A stretch of 64,000 nucleotides of DNA from a virus (Duplodnaviria > Caudoviricetes): IMG/VR virus record IMGVR_UViG_3300033498_000048, positions 160,001 to 224,000 of that record, one strand, 5' to 3'. The position numbers and the translations under genes are program-made. Numbering within the stretch: the first letter of the stretch is position 1; the number at the start of each line of letters is the position of its first letter. Under the pieces are notes generated by a model. That model was not told the DNA's origin, searched no databases, and saw only the letters and a list, made by a program, of their open reading frames with translations. Shown in pieces: positions 4,627-51,505 of this stretch.

Positions 4627-6108
4627 TCAATCTATTTCATCTTCAATAACATCAATTGGAACAATACTACTTCCAAATAAATTCGCAGTTGATAATTTAA
4701 AATTGTCAATTACCCATTTTTTAAATGTTGGATTGTCTAATATCGGTGTCCAAAATTCAGAACAATCCGTTTCTTTTAATCTCCATTTTTTAGCTTCAAT
4801 TTCACCTGTATCAAATACTCTTGAATACCAACCTTGGACTGGTTTAATAACAAGCCCTGATTGTAACCCTAACTCAATCAATCCAGTGTAAGTCGATAAT
4901 CCACCATCAAATTTAACTGTAATCGGAATCTTTGATTTCTCTATAACTACTCTTGATTTCTCAACATTTACCACAAAATTATGTCCAATTAATTCTGTTC
5001 CATCTTTTTCTTGTTGTCTACCGATAATGAAAATTGTATCTGCGGAATAATATGGACCCGTATTATGCGTTACAACTCCATTTTCCAAAATATAATGTTC
5101 AGCTTCATAGACTGAAATATCATAAACTGGCAATTTACCAACTATATTAATTGATTTGACAATCCTTCCACTTGTTTTACCAATATACCCATTTGTTGTA
5201 ACTGGAGTATCAATTTTTAAATTTTTTGCCTCTGTCCAACCATCAATTGTTAAAAATGAATGATTGTTTGAACAAGTGACACTATATCCATCATCAAATT
5301 GAATCTCATAACATTCTGGAATGCCAATATGTAACGTATCAGGATTCCATATTGAAGTAACAACTTTATCACCAATCGCAGTTCTAACCTGTTCACCAAC
5401 TTTAATGTTTTGTATTTCTTTAAGAGTGTTGTCCGACATTTGAAGCTTTGTTCCCGACACTAAACAACCTCCACTAACAACTGCTTTTGAATAGATTTCC
5501 TGTGTTTGATAGATGTGTGCCACGATAACACATGGAATGTTCTTTATTTTCATATATGGAGTAATAATTCTAAAAAATGATTTAATCTGTTTAGCTCTGC
5601 TCATATCAGCAACAGATTTTTCATCTTTAGCATCATCAACTTCTTTTTTGGATGCTATATTTCCGATTGAGTCCACAACAAAGATTACTTTATCACCCCG
5701 TTCAATTCCTTCTAATTGGTTTACCATATCGAACTTCAATTCTTCCAAATTCAGGATTGGAATGTGCATTACTCTTCCCATATCAATTTCCAATGAATTG
5801 AAATAGTCTTTAGAAGTACCAAACTCACAATTGTAAAACATTAATACAGACTCAGGATATTTGTCCATGTATTTTTTAGCCATTATCAGGGAAAACATTG
5901 TTTTAAATGATTTCGATGCACCTGCTAATATTGTGATTCCAGGTGAAAAGCCACCATCGACATCTCCCGATAACAAAATATCGAGAGATGGAATCCCAGT
6001 GTGTACGACTTCAGTTTGATTAAAAAACTTAGAGTCCTTTAATATTTCCGTTGCTTTAATTGTTGAATTGCTTTTCAATCTGTCCATCAAGCTTGTTTTT
6101 GTAGCCAT
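4627..6108 (-). CDS. uvsX: UvsX RecA-like recombinase containing a cis mini-intein
   Basis: GASKSFKT Walker A, VVDSIGN, DMSRAK, TGPYYSADTIFIIGRQQEKDG. Confidence 0.95.
   Translation of the reverse strand: MATKTSLMDRLKSNSTIKATEILKDSKFFNQTEVVHTGIPSLDILLSGDVDGGFSPGITILAGASKSFKTMFSLIMAKKYMDKYPESVLMFYNCEFGTSKDYFNSLEIDMGRVMHIPILNLEELKFDMVNQLEGIERGDKVIFVVDSIGNIASKKEVDDAKDEKSVADMSRAKQIKSFFRIITPYMKIKNIPCVIVAHIYQTQEIYSKAVVSGGCLVSGTKLQMSDNTLKEIQNIKVGEQVRTAIGDKVVTSIWNPDTLHIGIPECYEIQFDDGYSVTCSNNHSFLTIDGWTEAKNLKIDTPVTTNGYIGKTSGRIVKSINIVGKLPVYDISVYEAEHYILENGVVTHNTGPYYSADTIFIIGRQQEKDGTELIGHNFVVNVEKSRVVIEKSKIPITVKFDGGLSTYTGLIELGLQSGLVIKPVQGWYSRVFDTGEIEAKKWRLKETDCSEFWTPILDNPTFKKWVIDNFKLSTANLFGSSIVPIDVIEDEID
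5062..5466 (-). mobile_element. mini-intein (135 aa, no endonuclease) in UvsX
   Basis: VVSGG|CLVSGT...TCSNNHSFLT...VYDISV...ENGVVTHN|TGPY. Removal restores SGGTGPYYSAD. Confidence 0.95.
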
Positions 6109-6140: not shown

Positions 6141-7205
6141 TCATATATTGGTTTTAAATTTAATTAATGAGCTTACTGGACGTAAACTACTAACTTCTTT
6201 TTTCTTGGTCTTAGGTTTAATTATATGTTGAGGTTCAACAACTGTCAATTCAGTAGTTTGTTTACGGAATTGATTTAAGTTATTAACTTTAACTGGACTC
6301 CAATTAACTAAATTTGTAAAACTTTCCAATGGTTTTAAGAATGTTTTATTGAATTGGGTTTCTTTATCAACATATTTGTCTAATCCAAATTCCTCTAACA
6401 ATTCATCTGTAAATGCTATTGCATTATTTAATGTTGGATTTTGTTTGATTAAATATAAATATCTAACTTTCATTCCATTGGTAATTAATTGATATTCTTT
6501 ATCTAGTCCATATTTAAATAACTGATTATTGTAGGTTAGGCTAGCTTTGACTTGGACTGGAGTTCCAGACTTCCACGAAAATTTGTTTCCATGTAAACCA
6601 ACATCACTCCAACCACCAATGTCATTTACTCCAGTTGGCTTTGCTATATCATACAAATCAAGCTTAGGGTACGCAGCTTTAAATGATTTAACACGTTGCT
6701 GTAGGTCAGCCTCAGTTCCGTTTAATATTAGCTTAAAACAGGCTTCCAGTTCATTTTTGACTATATTTGGAGTGCTTGTTCGAGCTGTTTCAACACCAAC
6801 TGACTTTAATTTTGGTTCCGCATAACGGACATTTTCATTGTCCCAAACTTGTAAAATGTAGTTCTTTTTCGCTCTCCAAATACCCCTATCACAAATCACT
6901 TCACGTTTCATCTTTAGTGTATTATCAATTGCGTTTAAATAATTTGATAATATCGCAAATTTTTCATCTATAAATGGAGTAACCACTTCATCCGAAAATT
7001 TACTTAAATAGTCCACAATAGTATTAGTTGGAGTGTTTTGTGGAACAACTCTTTCTATTAAATTATTTAATTCTAAATACGAGGAATTATGTAGTAATAC
7101 CCCATTACCAAAAAAGTTGTGACAATCAGCAACTTCAATATCATATACCCATTCTTCTTGTATTCCCAATGATTCGATTGTAAAATTATTTGTTTCTACA
7201 AGCAT
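6141..7205 (-). CDS. gp43: DNA polymerase gp43 C-terminal piece, preceded by a 40-aa C-intein
   Basis: After HN|S come family-B polymerase motifs MKREVI, KKNYIL, KSVGVETARTSTP. Confidence 0.95.
   Translation of the reverse strand: MLVETNNFTIESLGIQEEWVYDIEVADCHNFFGNGVLLHNSSYLELNNLIERVVPQNTPTNTIVDYLSKFSDEVVTPFIDEKFAILSNYLNAIDNTLKMKREVICDRGIWRAKKNYILQVWDNENVRYAEPKLKSVGVETARTSTPNIVKNELEACFKLILNGTEADLQQRVKSFKAAYPKLDLYDIAKPTGVNDIGGWSDVGLHGNKFSWKSGTPVQVKASLTYNNQLFKYGLDKEYQLITNGMKVRYLYLIKQNPTLNNAIAFTDELLEEFGLDKYVDKETQFNKTFLKPLESFTNLVNWSPVKVNNLNQFRKQTTELTVVEPQHIIKPKTKKKEVSSLRPVSSLIKFKTNI
7086..7205 (-). mobile_element. split intein C-fragment (40 aa) of gp43
   Basis: MLVETNNFTIESLGIQEEWVYDIEVADCHNFFGNGVLLHN|S: intein blocks F and G. 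Confidence 0.95.
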
Positions 7206-8241
7206 TAATATTCTCCTGTATTCTTTTTATTTCGGTTTCAAAAAAATTGATATAATCTGTTTCCCATATTATATCTACATAATATCCCAGTGAGCGTAAA
7301 TGGTTATTTTTTATGATGTCATTATCCCATATTTGTTTTGAATTAAGGCTTTTGTTATATGGGTTTGGAGTATCACTCTCGATAAACATTTTTGGATTGG
7401 CGTGAAATACATCACCATTAAACTCTAAACAATATTTAATATCAGTAATTACAAAATCATACTTAAAATATTTAAATTGCTTAGACTCTGAAACCATAGT
7501 AGAACCAAATTCATTTTTATGTTCAGCAAAATAACAATGTTCCCTTTCGACTTCTGTTAAAATATTATCGTAAATGTTCCAACATAAATTTTGGGACATT
7601 TTAGATGCGAATGTGTGTACAGAAGAAATGTAACGGTCATATCTAATCATACCATCAAGTTCACCATACCTATTAATAAAGTTTTGAATTGTGTTAGCCT
7701 TTTTGCTACAAACATCGTTATATTTTTTAACACCATCAGTATTACCGTATTTTTCAATATAATATGGTAATACCTTTCCATTATATTTTTGTTTATCGCA
7801 ATAACTTTTCCATTTTTTATGACCTACGGTTTCACCATATCTTAAAATCATATTATCTAATGTAACAGCTCTCGATTTGTTAAACTTTAAAAAATCAAGT
7901 TCGGTCATTCCAAATTTTTCTTTTTTATATTCAAATGAATTGGTATTTGCTTGCTTATCACAATATGACTTCCACTTTTTACTACCTAATTGATTACCAT
8001 ATCTTAATATCATATTGTCCAACGTTTGGCTTTTTTTAGTTCTTAATAACAAACATCTATCTAATAAGTCATCATGTAATATATTACCATCCATAAATCC
8101 AACAATATACCCACAAATTGATTGTATGGACCAGGTATTATCTAAAAAATGTTTCTTTATTCTTAAATACTCTGATAAGTAATATTCTTTATTAACATTA
8201 CCATCTAACTTCAATTTAAAATCTTTAAAATTAACTACCAT
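7186..8241 (-). CDS. free-standing homing endonuclease (Vsr-like/DUF559-type C-terminal nuclease) between the gp43 halves
   Basis: Repeated (L/E/N)(R/K)YG units, then YDFVI...CLEFNGDVFHANP...LRSLGYYVDIIWETD. It lies between IntN and IntC. Confidence 0.8.
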   Translation of the reverse strand: MVVNFKDFKLKLDGNVNKEYYLSEYLRIKKHFLDNTWSIQSICGYIVGFMDGNILHDDLLDRCLLLRTKKSQTLDNMILRYGNQLGSKKWKSYCDKQANTNSFEYKKEKFGMTELDFLKFNKSRAVTLDNMILRYGETVGHKKWKSYCDKQKYNGKVLPYYIEKYGNTDGVKKYNDVCSKKANTIQNFINRYGELDGMIRYDRYISSVHTFASKMSQNLCWNIYDNILTEVEREHCYFAEHKNEFGSTMVSESKQFKYFKYDFVITDIKYCLEFNGDVFHANPKMFIESDTPNPYNKSLNSKQIWDNDIIKNNHLRSLGYYVDIIWETDYINFFETEIKRIQENINACRNK

Positions 8242-8298: not shown

Positions 8299-10647
8299 TT
8301 ACTTCATCAACTTGATAAACTTGTCTGTACTAATAACTTCAGTTGGTTTAATTGAAATGTTTTTTCCATCACGGTTTACTATTAATGAATGGTCTGCTGT
8401 ACAAATAATTTCAGTTCCATCTACTGTAATTTTAAACAATTCTTTTTTAACTTTGTGAGCCATAACGTATTTTATTGGATTTACAACTAATTTCCCGTTA
8501 ATATCTACTCCATACGCATTTAGATTAAATACTGGTTTAACGATATTGTCAATTTCATTTTTTACTGGAATTGTATTAATTGAATCAAATAAATTCCCTA
8601 TTTTCATATCACCACAATCCATTGAAATTACCGTATCACCAACAACGGAATCTGTATCGGAATAGATGACATAATCAACTCCATTAGTTTTAAACCTAGA
8701 ATTTAAAAACTCGTTTAATCGTTTAGCAATGTATAAGATTACAAGTTGTCCAGTTAGTGTAATACCTTCCGCCATATCATTTGAAGAATATCTGAATCCA
8801 GCGTTTCCACAAGACCCATAACACGAGTTGAGTGCTAATTTTAGGGCTATTTGCATAGCTTCGTGGAATGCCGAATCAGTATATAACTTTTCCAATTCGT
8901 TCTTCAATTCAGCATCCATTAAGTTTGCTAATTTAGTAGTACCACGTTTAGACAATTCGGTTTTAATGAGTTCTATTTTTTTATCAGCAGCTATTCGCAT
9001 CGTTTTATGCGAAACACGGTCATTAAACATTTCAGTGATAATTTCTGGAATGATACCAATTTTATCTTTTGAAAACATTGCCCCATTAGCTGCCATAGCA
9101 CAATTCAGCTTTTTTAAGTGTGCTGTATCTACATTTAAATCAATTAAATCTTCCACTAAATTTCCAGTAGCAGTCTTAACTAATGTTTCATAACTCACGT
9201 TTAACATTCGCATTATTGATGGATATAATGATGTTAAATCAAATGCGACAACCCATTTATATAAACCTGGAATTGGCTCTTTAACAAATGCTCCAGCATA
9301 TCCATCACTTGATTGTTTTTGTGGAGCGGGTGGGATTTGTATTCCTTTTTTTCTAAGTGCGTTATAAACTAAACATTCCCAGTTCTTGACTTGTCCAAAT
9401 ATTTCAGATTGTTTTACTTTACACATATACGCGATTGTTAATCCAATGAAAATGTAATTTAACTTCGCGTCCAACTTTCTAGGCAACCTAACGTCTTGGG
9501 TGTTATATTCTACAAATTTATTATAAGCATACTCTTTAATGTAATTATCAATCGTGAAATAAACATCAATCAATTCATTAGCATTTAGTTTATCCAAATC
9601 AACATTTAATATGTTAATATCAAATTTAGTTGTTTGGATGTAATCTAATTCAATTGGTAATTCTTTTCCATATTGTTGTTGGACACGTTCTTTAAATCTA
9701 CCAATTTTTAATATTTCTAAATCATTGTTTGATTTTAATGCTTTTTGGGATAGTATTCCATTATATAAATTGTGTAATGAACCAAATTCTGAATAATCAA
9801 CCTTCCGTTCTGATAATTCGACTAATGCAATATTATCTAATGAATAACTCCCAAGCTTTTGGGTACTAAACTTTTTATACATTTCGATATAGTCGTATGG
9901 AGAAATACCCAATATTTTATATCCCTTTTTTAAATTATCTAATTCAATTTCGGATATAACATTTCTAGCTTTTTTGTAAAATGGACTCAATCGGTCAGCC
10001 CACTGTTTACCCAATACTTTTTTTATTCGATTGATGATATAGGGAATATCAAATTCATTAATATTGAATCCTGTTATAATATCTGGTTCTATTTTAATCC
10101 ACTCATTAACGAATGTCATTAATAAATGCCGTTCATCGTCACATTCAATATATAATTCATCTGGATTACAATGACCAGTAAATGTTTTAGTTCCAATCGT
10201 TATATAGGTTGTATTATGTGCAAACGTTGCAAGTGTGATACTTGTTACTTCATTATCAGCAACATCTGGAGGTGAATATCCAAGTACAACATCAAATGCA
10301 ACTTCAATATCAAAGTTTAAAATGTTAATCTTTGTTATATCAAACTTTATTAAATCTGGATATTCAGTTGCAATGAATTGATGTGCTAAACTTGTTTGTC
10401 CGTGTATTTGACGATAGTTTCTGTTTTTGCGAATGTACTCATTAGTTTCTTTGACACTATTGAATCGTATGCTTGATAGTTTTTCACCCATAAATCCAAT
10501 TGCATCACCTTTACCCCTGTCACTTGGTACATATAAAACAAATGGGTAATTTTCTAATATTTCAGTCTGTCTTTTTTCTCCATCAAAAAACCTATGGAAT
10601 ATCTTATTTTCTTGCACTTCAACCGATGTGTAAAACTTTTCTGGCAT
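8299..10647 (-). CDS. gp43: DNA polymerase gp43 N-terminal piece ending in an N-intein
   Basis: Exonuclease motifs FDIEV and GFNINEFDIPY; polymerase motifs FDLTSLYPSIM, KLALNSCYG, YSDTD; then the intein N-fragment. Confidence 0.95.
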   Translation of the reverse strand: MPEKFYTSVEVQENKIFHRFFDGEKRQTEILENYPFVLYVPSDRGKGDAIGFMGEKLSSIRFNSVKETNEYIRKNRNYRQIHGQTSLAHQFIATEYPDLIKFDITKINILNFDIEVAFDVVLGYSPPDVADNEVTSITLATFAHNTTYITIGTKTFTGHCNPDELYIECDDERHLLMTFVNEWIKIEPDIITGFNINEFDIPYIINRIKKVLGKQWADRLSPFYKKARNVISEIELDNLKKGYKILGISPYDYIEMYKKFSTQKLGSYSLDNIALVELSERKVDYSEFGSLHNLYNGILSQKALKSNNDLEILKIGRFKERVQQQYGKELPIELDYIQTTKFDINILNVDLDKLNANELIDVYFTIDNYIKEYAYNKFVEYNTQDVRLPRKLDAKLNYIFIGLTIAYMCKVKQSEIFGQVKNWECLVYNALRKKGIQIPPAPQKQSSDGYAGAFVKEPIPGLYKWVVAFDLTSLYPSIMRMLNVSYETLVKTATGNLVEDLIDLNVDTAHLKKLNCAMAANGAMFSKDKIGIIPEIITEMFNDRVSHKTMRIAADKKIELIKTELSKRGTTKLANLMDAELKNELEKLYTDSAFHEAMQIALKLALNSCYGSCGNAGFRYSSNDMAEGITLTGQLVILYIAKRLNEFLNSRFKTNGVDYVIYSDTDSVVGDTVISMDCGDMKIGNLFDSINTIPVKNEIDNIVKPVFNLNAYGVDINGKLVVNPIKYVMAHKVKKELFKITVDGTEIICTADHSLIVNRDGKNISIKPTEVISTDKFIKLMK
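8302..8649 (-). mobile_element. split intein N-fragment (116 aa, Ser1) of gp43 at the YxDTD motif
   Basis: YSDTD|SVVGDTVI...IICTADHSLIV (block B TxxH). Splicing restores YSDTDSSYL. Confidence 0.95.
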
Positions 10648-45845: not shown

Positions 45846-46934
45846 TTATGTACCATCGCTGAAGAATCCAAATATTAAATGATTGGATTCTTCATTGTTT
45901 AAATAATTTTCACGCATTGACATTCTAGTGTCTAAATTTGTTAAATCGTAAAAATAGTCTTGACTTGTTAGCCATGCAAATATAACTAAGGTCATTACAA
46001 TATCATCGTGTTTACCACGTTCAGCTTCATAGGAAGTTCCCTTCTTAATAAACATAGTCAACTCTGTAATTGTATTGTAATCTACTAATTCTAAGGTATC
46101 ACTTTCAATTAGATTTTTTAATGTACTACATCCTATTAATTTGGTCTTTTTAGTTTGTCTTATTCCAACAATACTTGAATCTGTTATTATCGTATCTCCC
46201 TGCTTAGATTTTGATGTTAGCATATTTTCATATTCATATTCATAATACAATATGTTTGCTACTATTGTTCCAACACTATTGGATTCAATTACAATATAAG
46301 CATCATTATACTTTTTCGAGATGTGATATGATTCATCTGCAAACATAAAAGGAACAATTTGATTGTTCCTATAAACAGCAACTTGTTTATATCGCTTCTC
46401 AGTGACATCAATTATTGATATTACAGAATAGTCTTTGCCCATTCCCTCAGCAACATCAATAATTGAAATGTACGAATTACCTTGAATTGGATGCTCATAA
46501 ATGTATAAAGAATCGTTGATAACTTCTAATGGTTGTTTGTGGGTTAATTGTTGTAATTTCTTACCTGATATTAATGTACCAGAACTTCCAAGGAAATTAC
46601 AATTGTGACTGAGTATTCCATTAGTGTAATAAACACTATCTGTTCCAACATCAATTAAATCATACATTTCAATTGGAACATCTATCAGCTCTTTGTCAAT
46701 AACAAAACAACCATCCATATTAGTATCAACAAAATCACCTATAACCAACTCAATTGCCGTTTTTATTCCATCAATGGTAACTAATGGATGATTATCAGAA
46801 CATACCAAGTTAGTTCCATTAGAAAAACTTAACTTGATTTGCCTATCTTTGTTAATTTTATTAATCCCAATAAACGGTTCAAACCCATTAGGTGTTAAAA
46901 CTGTTAATTGTAAGTTGTTTGTTAATGTTGTCAT
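45846..46934 (-). CDS. gp17: terminase large subunit piece C (IntC-2 plus nuclease domain)
   Basis: After SHN|C come CNFLGSSGTLISG, DVAEGMGKDYS, IESN, HDDIVM. Confidence 0.95.
   Translation of the reverse strand: MTTLTNNLQLTVLTPNGFEPFIGINKINKDRQIKLSFSNGTNLVCSDNHPLVTIDGIKTAIELVIGDFVDTNMDGCFVIDKELIDVPIEMYDLIDVGTDSVYYTNGILSHNCNFLGSSGTLISGKKLQQLTHKQPLEVINDSLYIYEHPIQGNSYISIIDVAEGMGKDYSVISIIDVTEKRYKQVAVYRNNQIVPFMFADESYHISKKYNDAYIVIESNSVGTIVANILYYEYEYENMLTSKSKQGDTIITDSSIVGIRQTKKTKLIGCSTLKNLIESDTLELVDYNTITELTMFIKKGTSYEAERGKHDDIVMTLVIFAWLTSQDYFYDLTNLDTRMSMRENYLNNEESNHLIFGFFSDGT
46602..46934 (-). mobile_element. atypical split intein C-fragment 2 (111 aa), AceL-TerL-like
   Basis: VLTPNGF...LVCSDNHPL...MYDLIDV...YYTNGILSHN|C. 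Confidence 0.92.
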
Positions 46935-46949
46935 TATTATTCCATATCG

Positions 46950-48299
46950 TTATATGACATTGCAATTCAATCTATTATTTGTTGGATATACTGAAACCTT
47001 ATCAATAACATGACTATCAATTATTATTGAGTGTATTGTTCTTCCTATAAACGATTGTTTGTTTAGCCTTTCAACATATATTTTAACCCCGTTTTGCGAC
47101 TCGACTGATTTCTTCAATCTGTGTTTTAGTGGACTCTTTAATACCATGCAATCACTCGTAATTCCATTATACAATTCAATTATTTTATTTAATATTTCAC
47201 ATCCAATTATACTTTTACCAACAACTATTGGAATAGTTAAATTTGAATTAAATGCTAAACTAATAGCAGCATCATATATTAAATTGTTTGATATTTCAAA
47301 ATCGCGAGTACAATATTCTGGAGTTTGACTATTGTTAATTAATTGATATAAATCTCCAAATGTAATATTGTTACAAATTGAATTTTCGGATTTAATTATA
47401 ACTTCGGTATTAGCGGAACAACAATCATATTCTTGTGAGAAATTTTGTGTCCCAATATTACTTTCGGTTGTTTGTCTCCACGCTTCATCGCGTTCTGGGT
47501 GGTCATACCACAAATATTTACTCCTAACAAACTCATTTCTACCCTGTTCAGATTCAATCCACAGTTTGTAAAACAAATTCATACCTTTTGGAGTAGACGT
47601 GATTATCACCTTAGTTGTTTTTCCAGATGATATTACTGGGTAGGTTGATTCAAAAAATTCAACATCATTGTCAATATGGGCGAACTCATCACAGTAGAGT
47701 GTTCCAACTGATTTACCCCTGATGGAACTTGATGATGTTGCTGCACTAAAACACTTTGAACCATTCGCCAGTGTGATACTTGTTTTGTTCCAAGTTACAA
47801 CTCCAGGTTTTAAAAACCAAGGCAACTCCTCAAACATCTTACATAAACGGTCTAATATTTCTGCGGAAGTAGCTCCCTTATTTGCTAATATTCCAATCGA
47901 CTTATTACTATTGAATATTGCCTCATATAACAAATAGGCTGCTGCTGTTGTTGTATTGTGACTTACTATTCCATTTGAATAATATTGGTGTGATTCAGAA
48001 TCAACTTCAACATCATACATATTCTCGTATTCAGTTGTATTAGTAATTGATATTACTTTTGATGTACCGTTAATAGTTTTAATCACATCACCAATTATTA
48101 AGTCTTTAACAAATACTTCGGAATTGTATTCTGACATTACTATATGCGTATCTGCACACTCTAATTTTGCTCCACAATCAAACTCAACAACCCATTTTTC
48201 ATACGGAACAGTTTTCATTACATTTGTACAATTTACCCAACCTTCTGGGGTAAATACTTCCCAATCTGTAATTGGAATAACCCTCTCAAACTTCCTCAT
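46950..48299 (-). CDS. gp17: terminase large subunit piece B (IntC-1 + ATPase core + IntN-2 + extra tail)
   Basis: SHN|TTTAAAYLL, ILANK, IRGKSVGTLYCDEFAH, STPKGMN, FSQEYD|CCSANT. Confidence 0.95.
   Translation of the reverse strand: MRKFERVIPITDWEVFTPEGWVNCTNVMKTVPYEKWVVEFDCGAKLECADTHIVMSEYNSEVFVKDLIIGDVIKTINGTSKVISITNTTEYENMYDVEVDSESHQYYSNGIVSHNTTTAAAYLLYEAIFNSNKSIGILANKGATSAEILDRLCKMFEELPWFLKPGVVTWNKTSITLANGSKCFSAATSSSSIRGKSVGTLYCDEFAHIDNDVEFFESTYPVISSGKTTKVIITSTPKGMNLFYKLWIESEQGRNEFVRSKYLWYDHPERDEAWRQTTESNIGTQNFSQEYDCCSANTEVIIKSENSICNNITFGDLYQLINNSQTPEYCTRDFEISNNLIYDAAISLAFNSNLTIPIVVGKSIIGCEILNKIIELYNGITSDCMVLKSPLKHRLKKSVESQNGVKIYVERLNKQSFIGRTIHSIIIDSHVIDKVSVYPTNNRLNCNVI
47334..47423 (-). 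mobile_element. atypical split intein N-fragment 2 (about 30 aa)
   Basis: CCSANTEVIIK...NITFGDLYQLI parallels short TerL-type IntN (C..xT.V...I.DLY). The end coordinate is approximate. Confidence 0.85.
47955..48299 (-). mobile_element. atypical split intein C-fragment 1 (115 aa)
   Basis: EVFTPEGW...LECADTHIV...MYDVEV...YYSNGIVSHN|T. Confidence 0.92.
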
Positions 48300-48837
48300 T
48301 TATGATTCCATTTATCAACTTCAATGTATCACATTGGTCACTAGGTGTGTCATTATTTACTAATATAGTATTAGCAAAATTTGATTTTAATATATTGCGT
48401 ATTTTAGTTTTTCTACCCTTTAAGAATGTTTGATTTTGGTTACTACCTCTATCCAAATACCGTTTTTCCAAGTCTGTTGATTGTAAACATATAATATGTA
48501 AGGTTGTGTTTGCAATCTTAGAATAATACTCGAATAAACTAGATGACGATAACCTATCCCCTTCAAAAATAATTGTTGAATTTGTATTAATATCATCTAT
48601 TATAAATTCTTTAAATACTGGCATTACATTCATAGCCAACTTGTCTGTTCCAGAAAATGTTTCTGTTGGATTAGAGTAATCGCCAACTATTTTAACAACA
48701 CCAATATCATGGTACTTAACCAATTTCATATACTTCTTCATATCGGTTACATCAACGTTCAATGATTCAATTAACCGTTTCATTAAAGATGTTTTCCCAG
48801 TTCCAGGCTCGCCTATTATTGCTATCATTTTTTGCAT
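48286..48837 (-). CDS. P-loop kinase of the 5-hydroxymethyluracil DNA kinase type
   Basis: IGEPGTGKT, FSGTDKL, IIFEGDRL; adjacent to the aGPT-Pplase gene. Confidence 0.75.
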   Translation of the reverse strand: MQKMIAIIGEPGTGKTSLMKRLIESLNVDVTDMKKYMKLVKYHDIGVVKIVGDYSNPTETFSGTDKLAMNVMPVFKEFIIDDINTNSTIIFEGDRLSSSSLFEYYSKIANTTLHIICLQSTDLEKRYLDRGSNQNQTFLKGRKTKIRNILKSNFANTILVNNDTPSDQCDTLKLINGIINEEV

Positions 48838-49973
48838 ACAAATCCCCTAAGTGATTGATTGTTTGTTTTGTAATAAGTATCATTATAATCATTTTTAAAA
48901 CAATCGTGTTCAAAGTTCAACATTACAACTTGACCCGTGTTCCTAAAATGATTTTGTTTGTCCTTGTGTACACCTTTACATCTTGGGTTATATTCAAATA
49001 GTAAATACTCAGGTAAGCAATTATGTCTAATATTCCAGAATAAATCAAAACGTTTATTCCATTTAATTTCAGCATATTTTATTCTATCGTGAAACATATC
49101 ATTATACACATTTGGATAACGTCTATTTTTCCTATACCACGATTTGTAGCAGCACAAGGTTGATTCTAATGTAAAATAATTTACATCATTAATATAATTT
49201 TCTTCCTTGAACCTACCAATACATTCGCTTAACAGTACACCACCTTCAATTGTTAATGCTTCAATAATACCTTTATCATATTTACCATCAAAATCTGGAT
49301 TAGATTGTGAATGCCAATCTAAATCGTCACGCCCCAATACCTTGCACAAACCATTCCTATGTGATTTACTACCATTCAAATCATGTAAAAACAATGAACT
49401 ACAGCAAATATTTAAGCCTATTATTTTCAAATATTCTAAATATGAAAATGTCGATAGTCTCCCGAATAAGTAAAACTTATCAATTACAGTTTTCCATACT
49501 GTATCAAAATTATCAAATTGGTTGTCGGTATTGCACATTGATGTGAAAAAATTATGTTGAGTATCGTATTTAGAGATTATTTCTTTATAATTTAGAATCA
49601 TATTCTCTAATTTATTTTTTACATATCTCCTATCTGTATCCCAACCAAACTTAGTATAGTTTTCTCTGAAAAAAACAGAAAATTTGTCAATATCGAGTGT
49701 GTTAAAATCACTAAAATTCTCAAACAAAATCCATGATGTAATAATATTTTGACAACAACCATTTAAAAACACCAACCAATATTGCTGCTCTATATTTAAA
49801 TTGTGTATTTTAATTAACTCTGGAATGACATAATACACTGCCCCAGGGTGTGATTTATATTTTAAATGGAATTGATAAAACCTAATAAATGTTTCACGCC
49901 GATATTTGTGTTCCCTGAAATCAGAACCAACAACCAAGTTTGAATCATTGTTGCTGTTAATTTTAAATACCAT
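48825..49973 (-). CDS. aGPT-Pplase2 / amino acid:DNA transferase-like protein
   Basis: DTDRRY, FGRLSTFSYLEYL, SKSHRNGL, FTLESTLCCYK, RRYPNVY. Confidence 0.8.
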   Translation of the reverse strand: MVFKINSNNDSNLVVGSDFREHKYRRETFIRFYQFHLKYKSHPGAVYYVIPELIKIHNLNIEQQYWLVFLNGCCQNIITSWILFENFSDFNTLDIDKFSVFFRENYTKFGWDTDRRYVKNKLENMILNYKEIISKYDTQHNFFTSMCNTDNQFDNFDTVWKTVIDKFYLFGRLSTFSYLEYLKIIGLNICCSSLFLHDLNGSKSHRNGLCKVLGRDDLDWHSQSNPDFDGKYDKGIIEALTIEGGVLLSECIGRFKEENYINDVNYFTLESTLCCYKSWYRKNRRYPNVYNDMFHDRIKYAEIKWNKRFDLFWNIRHNCLPEYLLFEYNPRCKGVHKDKQNHFRNTGQVVMLNFEHDCFKNDYNDTYYKTNNQSLRGFVCKK

Positions 49974-51375
49974 AATTTGTTCCTGTAAAATATTGTAATA
50001 TAGGTTTATGATATTGCTCTAACCAATCTTTGCCATTATCTTTAGTTAGTAAGAACTCATACCACTCCCTAGCACATTCATAATTACCATCTTTTTCTAT
50101 TATATTACCAAAAGAATTTGTTCCAACTCCATTCCAACCTTTGATATTTGAATTGTTTTTCCTCAACTCAACAAATTCTTTTCGGGCTTGCTCATATTCA
50201 TATGTGCCTAGTGATAACATCCCTTCATGTAAAAATGCTATCACACTAACACGTTCAGCATCGGGTTCATGTAACACTATCTCAGTATTACCATGTAAGC
50301 CTTGCATATTATTGATTAATAGTAAATCGCGGGGTCTAATATCAATTGCATATCCAATTTCAGGTAATACTAAATGTCCACCAGAATAATTATCATTTTT
50401 GGATAATACACATAAATTAGCAAAACCTTGTTCCATGTTTGCTGGGTCATAATGTGCTGAGGTTCTGAAATTTTTATTTACAGTAATAGTGGTAAATGGT
50501 GTGTTAGGTACAATGAACTTATTATCTATTTTATCACAAGCTGCTAGTTGATTAGCATACCTAATTGGTAATAACTCTTTGAATAATTGTGCCAGCCTTT
50601 CTAAAAATGGAAAAGATAATTTAAATTTTTCATAGTTGTTTTTTGTGTATGCCGTTTCACGCCCAAACGGAATCCTTGGGTATCTATCATAATATCCAGC
50701 AACCCCAGAGTTTACAAAGTTTGCGTATATTGTTTTTGATATGTACGATTTAACCAATTTACAATTATCTACAATAGTTGTAAATTCATATTGTCCAGAC
50801 TTAATTGTACTAATTAATTCAAAATACCACAATTCAAAATTAAAATTATTTATAATAACTTTATTAGATATGTAAACTTTATCGGTATATTCTGGTTCAC
50901 TTTTATACACCTCAAATATTGATTCCAACTGTAATATTGTTTCAGTTGTAATTCTTTTACAATTAATTAAAATATCCAGTATAGAAAGTTCTTGTTTTGT
51001 TGCTCTGACCCTATTACCATGTAATCTAGTGTTTATTTTTCCACTAGCATTACCTCGATTATCTGTTGGAACTGCTGCGTCAGCCAACCCATCATACCCA
51101 GATTCAACTTCAGATTGAGTGAATGCGTTTTTTCTAAACTTGAATAGTATGTATTTTTCTGGATTTGAATTAACACACCTAATACAATCATCTTTTGTTT
51201 GGCAGTTATTACCTTTAGCATATTTTAATAACCCTCCAGGGTTACAAGAATCATATAGATATAAGTCGGTATCTTCAGTTATTAATGTGTGGTATGATGT
51301 ATCATCTAACCACTCCCTAACCAATTCTTGTTTGTTAGTATAATCTTTAATTGTTAAAACTATTTGTTTAACCAC
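49963..51375 (-). CDS. TET/JBP-family 2OG-Fe(II) dioxygenase
   Basis: TPFTTITVNKNFRTSAHYD (HxD), GGHLVLPE, LHGNT, RVSVIAF; GATAAATA at 51409-51416. Confidence 0.85.
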   Translation of the reverse strand: MVKQIVLTIKDYTNKQELVREWLDDTSYHTLITEDTDLYLYDSCNPGGLLKYAKGNNCQTKDDCIRCVNSNPEKYILFKFRKNAFTQSEVESGYDGLADAAVPTDNRGNASGKINTRLHGNRVRATKQELSILDILINCKRITTETILQLESIFEVYKSEPEYTDKVYISNKVIINNFNFELWYFELISTIKSGQYEFTTIVDNCKLVKSYISKTIYANFVNSGVAGYYDRYPRIPFGRETAYTKNNYEKFKLSFPFLERLAQLFKELLPIRYANQLAACDKIDNKFIVPNTPFTTITVNKNFRTSAHYDPANMEQGFANLCVLSKNDNYSGGHLVLPEIGYAIDIRPRDLLLINNMQGLHGNTEIVLHEPDAERVSVIAFLHEGMLSLGTYEYEQARKEFVELRKNNSNIKGWNGVGTNSFGNIIEKDGNYECAREWYEFLLTKDNGKDWLEQYHKPILQYFTGTNYGI

Positions 51376-51505
51376 ATCAATGCTCCTTGTTTTTGTGTAT
51401 TGTTGTAGTATTTATCACAATAATCAAACGCAACATTTATATTTACACTACCACAACAGTCTGCTAAAATTGTACATTTAAACGTATTAATTTGGAGTCA
51501 TCATT

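Follow-up and report, generated by a model that had tools for sequence, protein, structure and literature searches.

In Salmonella phage ViI (5-NeOmdU) and Pseudomonas phage M6 (5-NedU), a ThyA-type dUMP hydroxymethylase makes 5-hydroxymethyldeoxyuridine (5hmdU) before replication, homologous kinases and amino acid:DNA transferases (AADTs) then act in both phages, and the adduct is tailored by a pyridoxal phosphate (PLP) decarboxylase, to which M6 adds a radical S-adenosylmethionine (SAM) isomerase. A different origin of the hydroxymethylated base was concluded by Lee et al. (Nucleic Acids Res 2021/22), who described TET_JBP genes beside those for a 5-hmdU DNA kinase (5-HMUDK) and an AADT on contigs without a hydroxymethylase, where thymine (T) would be converted to 5-hydroxymethyluracil (5hmU) in DNA (PMC8989533). 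Burke et al. (PNAS 2021) reported that the phage enzyme TET89 oxidises T and listed its kinase and aGPT-Pplase neighbours (PMC8256090), and O'Toole et al. (PNAS 2026) demonstrated both ParB-independent and ParB-dependent phage T-dioxygenases, for the latter of which they state a consistent association with GATases, P-loop kinases and AADTs (PMC13229309). The oxidation step has been shown in this way, and the kinase and transferase steps have been shown separately on pre-made 5hmdU DNA (PMC13229309, PMC8989533). Here we describe a locus that encodes a TET/JBP-type dioxygenase (P0001), an AADT (P0002) and a P-loop kinase (P0003) in an uncultured T4-like jumbo phage from a microbial-mat sample, in a 64,000-nucleotide stretch (the window) formed by bases 160001-224000 of IMG/VR record IMGVR_UViG_3300033498_000048. 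The locus is best read as probably encoding a self-contained, fully post-replicative pathway of thymine hypermodification, from T through 5hmU and 5-phosphomethyl-U to amino-acid-thymine.

The three genes are intact open reading frames (ORFs) on the minus strand that span window positions 48286-51375 and overlap head to tail by 11 and 13 nt. The dioxygenase gene (49963-51375, minus strand; 470 residues) has a GTG start that lies 7 nt after the Shine-Dalgarno sequence AAGGAG (51383-51388, minus strand). It is followed by the AADT gene (48825-49973, minus strand; 382 residues) and the kinase gene (48286-48837, minus strand; 183 residues), whose stop overlaps the start of a terminase large-subunit piece by 14 nt. 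The octamer GATAAATA (51409-51416, minus strand) was read 34 nt upstream of the P0001 start and matches the T4-type late promoter TATAAATA at 7 of 8 positions, with G in place of the first T. The original prediction of three overlapping genes behind a late-promoter-like site was thus confirmed by the ORF coordinates, the family matches and the upstream sequence. Each of the three genes is present once in the genome.

The association of these genes exceeds chance. Relatives of P0001 are encoded at 361 or more IMG/VR loci, and among the 86 related viral loci compared here (80 fetched from IMG/VR and 6 others) the dioxygenase family adjoins an AADT in about 37 and the kinase family in about 30. 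The closest published counterparts are sequences 22-25 in Fig. 2 of Lee et al. (PMC8989533), in which the same three enzyme families are adjacent, with no dUMP hydroxymethylase and no nearby source of 5-methylcytosine (5mC). Those clusters are contig fragments, often with extra tailoring genes, whereas the present locus is a minimal cassette in a terminase operon of a complete genome. Mycobacteriophages such as Prince (PQ184799) are the nearest cultured phages as judged by the AADT. Their genomes start with ParB, a 'thymidine hydroxylase', AADT, kinase and terminase, which is the order found in the window minus ParB. However, the Prince dioxygenase has 324 residues compared with 470 in P0001 and is barely alignable with it (pairwise E 0.002), P0001 belonging to another family, phrog_24024.

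P0001 matched the Tet_JBP profile PF12851 over residues 232-384 (88.7 bits, cut-off 34.9, E 3e-25; 91.6 bits in a six-frame search of the genome) and phrog_24024 over its full length (2e-106). The residues expected to bind iron and 2-oxoglutarate (2OG), H308, D310 and H361 of the HxD...H motif and the 2-oxoglutarate arginine R375, were invariant in 37 homologues. Among solved structures, sequence searches with P0001 gave only a weak match to TET2. An AlphaFold2 model built on the homologue alignment had a mean predicted local distance difference test score (pLDDT) of 81, and its best structural match was human TET2 (Z 19.8, 264 aligned residues, root-mean-square deviation 3.6), with Naegleria NgTET1 at Z 18.9 and AlkB/ALKBH-family chains at Z of at most 14.2. 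On these data, P0001 is predicted to be a 5-methylpyrimidine dioxygenase (5mYOX) with the TET-type double-stranded beta-helix fold and not a generic 2OG oxygenase.

Members of the P0001 family have about 445-470 residues and are larger than the characterised enzymes. A ParB-like domain fused to the N-terminus of P0001 was considered and rejected, as residues 1-235 gave no Pfam match and model residues 1-406 align with the catalytic domains of TET2 and NgTET1. The extent of this alignment suggests that the N-terminal 230 residues form part of the TET fold with insertions and not a separate domain. In the model, helices at residues 384-464 follow the last core strand, and residues 407-470 form a C-terminal helical extension. 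The extra length of P0001 is therefore predicted to consist of insertions together with this extension. One insertion of about 19-25 residues is rich in cysteine (approximately residues 42-70, with C44, C58, C64 and C67; window 51166-51252) and is not present in four homologues aligned residue by residue; the model has a pLDDT of about 50 there, and the insertion may be a small metal-binding loop. The position three residues after the HxD aspartate is N313 in P0001 and an aspartate in 90% or more of family members; it was examined as a marker of substrate and dropped, since the residue found there does not follow the neighbouring genes within the family.

P0002 matched PF18724 (ADDT) with 81.2 bits (cut-off 26.2; 1e-22) and is 31% identical to ViI gp247, a serine:DNA transferase (E 1e-26). 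Its closest relative is the AADT of locus L067, at 51% identity, which lies in a near-identical layout of dioxygenase, one further gene, AADT and kinase; identity to actinophage AADTs, including that of Prince, is 36-39%. The P0002 motif E-x-x-L-C-x-x-K aligns with the Glu/Cys region of M6 gp51 and ViI gp247, BLASTP pairs E270 and C274 of P0002 with the motif Glu and Cys in M6 gp51, and both residues are kept in 39 of 42 aligned AADTs. Mutation of that Glu or Cys kills M6 gp51 and ViI gp247 (PMC8989533). Solved structures yielded no sequence match to P0002. Collectively, these data identify P0002 as a predicted AADT, of the group formerly called aGPT-Pplase clade 2. The characterised AADT closest to P0002, only 31% identical to it, has serine as its donor, and to our knowledge there are no published rules of amino-acid specificity for AADTs.

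P0003 passed the cut-off of Ploopntkinase3 (PF18751) marginally, with 31.1 bits against 27 (2e-7). The motifs of the family are conserved in it: the Walker A loop G9-x-P-G-x-G14-K15, D65, E92-G-D94-R95, R126 and R130. In single-target searches, a hidden Markov model (HMM) of the P0003 family matched the Prince kinase at 1e-18, M6 gp54 at 4e-7 and ViI gp243 at 5e-6, and in pairwise BLAST P0003 aligned with M6 gp54 over the N-terminal 58 residues only (E 4e-4). By sequence, the solved structures that matched were generic P-loop proteins only. P0003 is thus predicted to belong to the 5-hmdU DNA kinase type of P-loop kinases, as a distant relative of the proven 5-HMUDK enzymes. The label 'terminase small subunit' attached to phrog_800 was ruled out for P0003 by the Walker A loop and the kinase-family motifs. 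That label can be traced to RefSeq, which mis-annotates the proven 5-hmdU DNA kinase M6 gp54 (L093:13686-14249) as 'terminase small subunit'.

The viral record comprises 305,782 bp (G+C about 31%) with direct terminal repeats and is 100% complete by CheckV, so that absences can be tested genome-wide. Pfam searches, tblastn with reference proteins and custom HMMs run on all six-frame ORFs found no ThyA-family protein, the family of dUMP and dCMP hydroxymethylases, and no C5 cytosine methyltransferase (C5-MT) in the complete genome; the controls of the ThyA Pfam search were positive in 10 of 14 genomes. Likewise, no PF02195 (ParB) match was found at E values up to 1, and the Prince ParB gave no match by tblastn or HMM. 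Queries with M6 gp58, the Montesquieu hydroxymethylase, a C5-MT from a related locus and Prince ParB returned nothing below E 0.6 by tblastn of the genome, and profiles built from those proteins returned nothing significant among the six-frame ORFs. In tblastn searches with every cluster that adjoins the dioxygenase in the 86 loci, the genome contained no homologue of the GATase, amidoligase-like, GNAT or FkbM methylase proteins, nor of the inositol-phosphate-synthase-like protein, TET-associated glycosyltransferase (TAGT), GT1, epimerase or phosphatase. The M6 hydroxymethylase, PLP decarboxylase and radical SAM isomerase, and the clade 1 aGPT-Pplase, also had no homologue in the genome by tblastn.

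The only thymidylate-synthase-like gene of the genome was a ThyX-like ORF of 437 residues, some 29 kb ahead of the window (genome 129701-131014, minus strand; L002:817-2130). This ORF is atypical in that the Thy1 profile covers residues 39-210 only and the pieces of the ThyX signature are split between the two halves, with QESSTRY at about residue 86 and RHR at about residue 296. A dUTPase-family gene is also present, and the two genes together point to a putatively normal dTTP supply. With ThyX-like and dUTPase-family genes and no C5-MT or ThyA-type enzyme, thymine should be the only abundant 5-methylpyrimidine in the phage DNA. The window had been reported to be without a dUMP hydroxymethylase or C5-MT, and this holds for the whole complete genome, where a search beyond the window added the ThyX-like gene and neither a ThyA-type hydroxymethylase nor a C5-MT. 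The absence of a hydroxymethylase from the complete genome also supports the earlier suggestion that the dioxygenase may form 5hmU directly on DNA and so supply the kinase and transferase.

Taken together, the homologies, the conservation of catalytic residues, the linkage of the genes and the absences from the whole genome suggest the following mechanism. P0001 would flip thymines out of phage DNA and hydroxylate them at the C5 methyl group, which yields 5hmU, probably in some sequence contexts only. By homology to M6 gp54 and the ViI kinases, P0003 would then move one phosphate from ATP to yield 5-phosphomethyl-dU. In the last step, which follows from the homology and catalytic residues of P0002, Cys274 would add to C6 and the phosphate would leave; Glu270 would then serve as the acid for the attack of a free amino acid on the exocyclic methylene, to form an amino-acid-thymine conjugate. 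Since the decarboxylases, radical SAM isomerases, GATases, amidoligases, acetyltransferases and glycosyltransferases found in relatives have no counterpart in the genome, the final base would probably be an un-tailored amino-acid adduct. The three genes would be transcribed late, together with the terminase gene, so that replicated DNA would be modified ahead of packaging or in its course. The likely benefit would be the shielding of packaged DNA from host nucleases.

Most of the 86 related loci belong to T4-like phages in which the dioxygenase gene follows the genes for UvsX and the gp41 helicase, and what lies downstream varies. One context combines a GATase and an amidoligase-like or GNAT protein with the AADT and kinase, and another an FkbM methylase, AADT, inositol-phosphate-synthase-like protein and kinase; others contain TET-associated or GT1 glycosyltransferases with an epimerase, or a group of unknown genes. 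Only one sub-clade combines a C5-MT with a glycosyltransferase, in the order C5-MT, MazG, dioxygenase, TAGT. On a quick dioxygenase tree with SH-aLRT support, these contexts were interleaved, as would be expected if the dioxygenase were a stable 'primer' whose downstream chemistry is swapped. P0001 itself sits on a long branch beside the glycosyltransferase-linked dioxygenase of locus L011.

A myo-inositol-1-phosphate-synthase-like gene lies between the AADT and kinase genes in many relatives (L040-L043, L064, L074 and L088), and Caulobacter phage Cr30 has such a gene near its dioxygenase (L092:12284-13465). These genes hint at a possible inositol-derived DNA adduct in those relatives. Cultured carriers of the P0001 family include Stenotrophomonas phage DLP6, Cr30 and Synechococcus phage S-CBWM1, in all three of which the dioxygenase is labelled 'SNF2 DNA repair protein' (DLP6, L091:6992-8338; Cr30, L092:6992-8320; S-CBWM1, MG450654 3861-5123). 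In mycobacteriophage records, the dioxygenase often bears the name 'queuine tRNA-ribosyltransferase' or 'oxidoreductase'. No near-identical DNA to the present phage was found in cultured phages.

Several observations weigh against a thymine pathway at this locus. The choice of substrate and the full pathway are predictions for the P0001 family, and the phage is uncultured. The Pfam score of P0003 is just 4 bits above the cut-off, and the first base of the promoter motif GATAAATA is not that of the consensus. In E. coli, O'Toole et al. report no activity on T or 5mC for some clade C1 enzymes without ParB that were produced alone (PMC13229309). The nearest dioxygenase relative, at L011 (45-48% identity), adjoins a glycosyltransferase and not an AADT. 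Further, the five loci of one sub-clade all carry a TET-associated glycosyltransferase and four of them an adjacent C5-MT, a context in which the P0001 family may also serve 5mC pathways.

The inactivity of those clade C1 enzymes, together with the lack of a ParB gene in the genome, is consistent with a P0001 that is inert without a DNA-bound partner. The long branch of P0001 (1.72 substitutions per site) and a C-terminal tail diverged from the family consensus would also fit an inert enzyme or a cassette that is a decaying remnant, and in either case there would be little or no modification. However, the three ORFs are intact, all catalytic residues tested are conserved, the genes overlap each other and the essential terminase gene, and the ribosome-binding site is good. 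These features speak against decay, and we regard an inert or decaying cassette as unlikely.

The glycosyltransferase-linked sub-clade bears on a cytosine pathway, in which P0001 would oxidise 5mC to 5-hydroxymethylcytosine (5hmC), the kinase would phosphorylate it and the transferase would add an amino acid at the C5 methyl group of cytosine. The members of this sub-clade (L003, L004 and L006-L008) carry the TET-associated glycosyltransferase, four of the five adjoin a PF00145 C5-MT, and the Burke et al. 5mC systems share both the enzyme superfamily and this C5-MT and glycosyltransferase context. Burke et al. also list contigs with C5-MT, TET, P-loop kinase and aGPT-Pplase and propose phosphorylation of 5hmC (PMC8256090), characterised T-dioxygenases also oxidise 5mC in vitro (PMC13229309), and the AADT chemistry, with Cys attack at C6, in principle fits either pyrimidine. 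Unlike those systems, the source genome has no C5-MT by any of the three search methods and no glycosyltransferase; it also lacks a ThyA-type dCMP methylase or hydroxymethylase, so that sparse 5mC made by the host would be the only possible substrate, and about 80 of the 86 related loci have no adjacent C5-MT. A cytosine pathway is thus quite improbable here.

Least plausible, and in our view very improbable, is 5hmU made before replication by an unconventional enzyme such as the two-domain ThyX-like protein, with P0001 then oxidising further or marking sites: the atypical 437-residue ORF, with its signature pieces split between halves and its putative function, leaves room for such an activity, but we know of no hydroxymethylase in the ThyX family, ThyX with a dUTPase-family gene is the usual route to dTMP, and translation of the dioxygenase is coupled to that of the AADT and kinase, its companions in dozens of loci without any hydroxymethylase.

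The post-replicative thymine pathway thus remains the preferred reading, and P0001 can be placed relative to the described T-dioxygenases. Clade C1 enzymes such as 5mYOX176/ParB176 and the Prince enzyme resemble P0001 in their linkage with T-hypermodification machinery. Like them, P0001 is predicted to extend past the last core strand, and its helices there are a candidate counterpart of the C-terminal extension reported only for the ParB-dependent subclass (PMC13229309). The cognate ParB-like gene by which that 5mYOX subclass is recognised is nevertheless missing from the source genome, and no ParB was found in any of the 86 related loci. Clade C2 (5mYOX89/97, about 290-300 residues), which was compared by its published description, also has no ParB nearby, and some P0001 relatives adjoin glycosyltransferases as C2 enzymes do; by contrast, the P0001 family is larger and carries a C-terminal extension.

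ParB itself is a DNA-sliding clamp. In the P0001 family, a tail of the form SLE[D/E]FF(G) ends 85 of 87 dioxygenases and 38 of 40 DNA polymerases of the same loci (L011-L090 and L003-L008). The same tail was present on 14 of 16 neighbouring glycosyltransferases and 17 of 37 AADTs, and on none of 165 helicase, UvsX, kinase and GATase sequences. Variants of the tail co-vary within loci, as in L035, with the termini DLFG (polymerase), DLFA (dioxygenase) and NIFG (AADT). The known sliding-clamp epitope consists of the acidic-hydrophobic C-termini of T4 gp43, gp55 and gp33 (PMC2988020). In the source phage, the tails have diverged: the polymerase ends in SSLIKFKTNI (SL-I-K-F plus four residues), P0002 in QSLRGFVCKK (SL-R-G-F plus four residues) and P0001 in ILQYFTGTNYGI (IL-Q-Y-F plus seven residues). 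SLxxF within the last 14 residues occurs in only 7 of the 475 ORFs of this phage. The tail resemblance in the source phage is therefore suggestive but not conclusive, and its gp55 tail does not resemble the polymerase tail and gives no support for a clamp-binding motif. Together, these observations raise the tentative and somewhat doubtful possibility that the P0001 family is a third subclass of phage T-dioxygenases, from T4-like phages and ParB-less, tethered by the sliding clamp gp45 instead of ParB. If true, such a swap of clamps would explain the inactivity of such ParB-less enzymes when expressed alone in E. coli.

The wider genome provides context for the promoter-like site. The late-promoter motif TATAAATA is depleted genome-wide, with 45 sites compared with about 119 expected from base composition. 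About half of these sites fall in the intergenic 12% of the genome: 23 of the 45 are intergenic and no more than 80 nt upstream of a co-oriented ORF, mostly at 11-52 nt. In both depletion and placement, the motif resembles T4-type late promoters, and a homologue of the late sigma factor gp55 is encoded in the genome (tblastn). The GATAAATA octamer has only 10 copies genome-wide, and its 34-nt spacing is typical of the 23 well-placed TATAAATA sites. 'Late-promoter-like' is thus a fair wording for GATAAATA, as an unproven candidate promoter. A perfect TATAAATA was also observed within the P0001 coding sequence (window 50847-50854, minus strand), 874 nt upstream of the point where the AADT gene starts; this site may be a chance occurrence or an internal late promoter.

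Downstream of the kinase gene, the terminase large subunit is encoded in two pieces on the minus strand. The first (46950-48299) contains the ATPase domain with intein halves (Terminase_6N, 3e-23, and a weak Intein_splicing match), and its 14-nt overlap with P0003 places it in the same apparent late operon. The second (45846-46934) contains the nuclease domain (Terminase_6C, 1e-16) and is followed by the tail sheath gene. The family B DNA polymerase (gp43) also lies in two ORFs, with a 351-residue ORF between the pieces that has a weak restriction-endonuclease-like match (window 6141-7205, 7186-8241 and 8299-10647, minus strand). Intein-splicing matches at the end of the N-terminal gp43 piece and the start of the C-terminal piece look like a split intein. 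UvsX (window 4627-6108, minus strand) has 493 residues compared with about 356 in relatives, and an Intein_splicing match at residues 247-300 is probably a mini-intein. With inteins in UvsX, terminase and polymerase, the phage would be unusually intein-rich.

The original prediction implied that this pathway was new, but its design is already found in Lee et al. (PMC8989533) and O'Toole et al. (PMC13229309). With the published TET_JBP/kinase/AADT clusters and T-dioxygenases, the pathway is already known as a kind, and the present locus is a clean further example. Particular to this case are a minimal cassette in a complete genome, with no tailoring enzyme or alternative found; its move from the replication-gene block to the terminase operon, converging on the mycobacteriophage arrangement; and a dioxygenase family that is ParB-less throughout the 86 loci and larger than the characterised enzymes. 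Since no known alternative source of 5hmU or 5hmC and no known tailoring enzyme was found, the three genes should suffice to convert plain T in DNA to amino-acid-thymine. As far as we know, the complete route through dioxygenase, kinase and transferase is yet to be reconstituted, and the main value of this locus is as a clean test system in a complete genome. Although knowledge of how such pathways are built is unchanged by this case, it points to a large dioxygenase family of T4-like phages that is mis-annotated as 'SNF2 DNA repair protein' in cultured phages.

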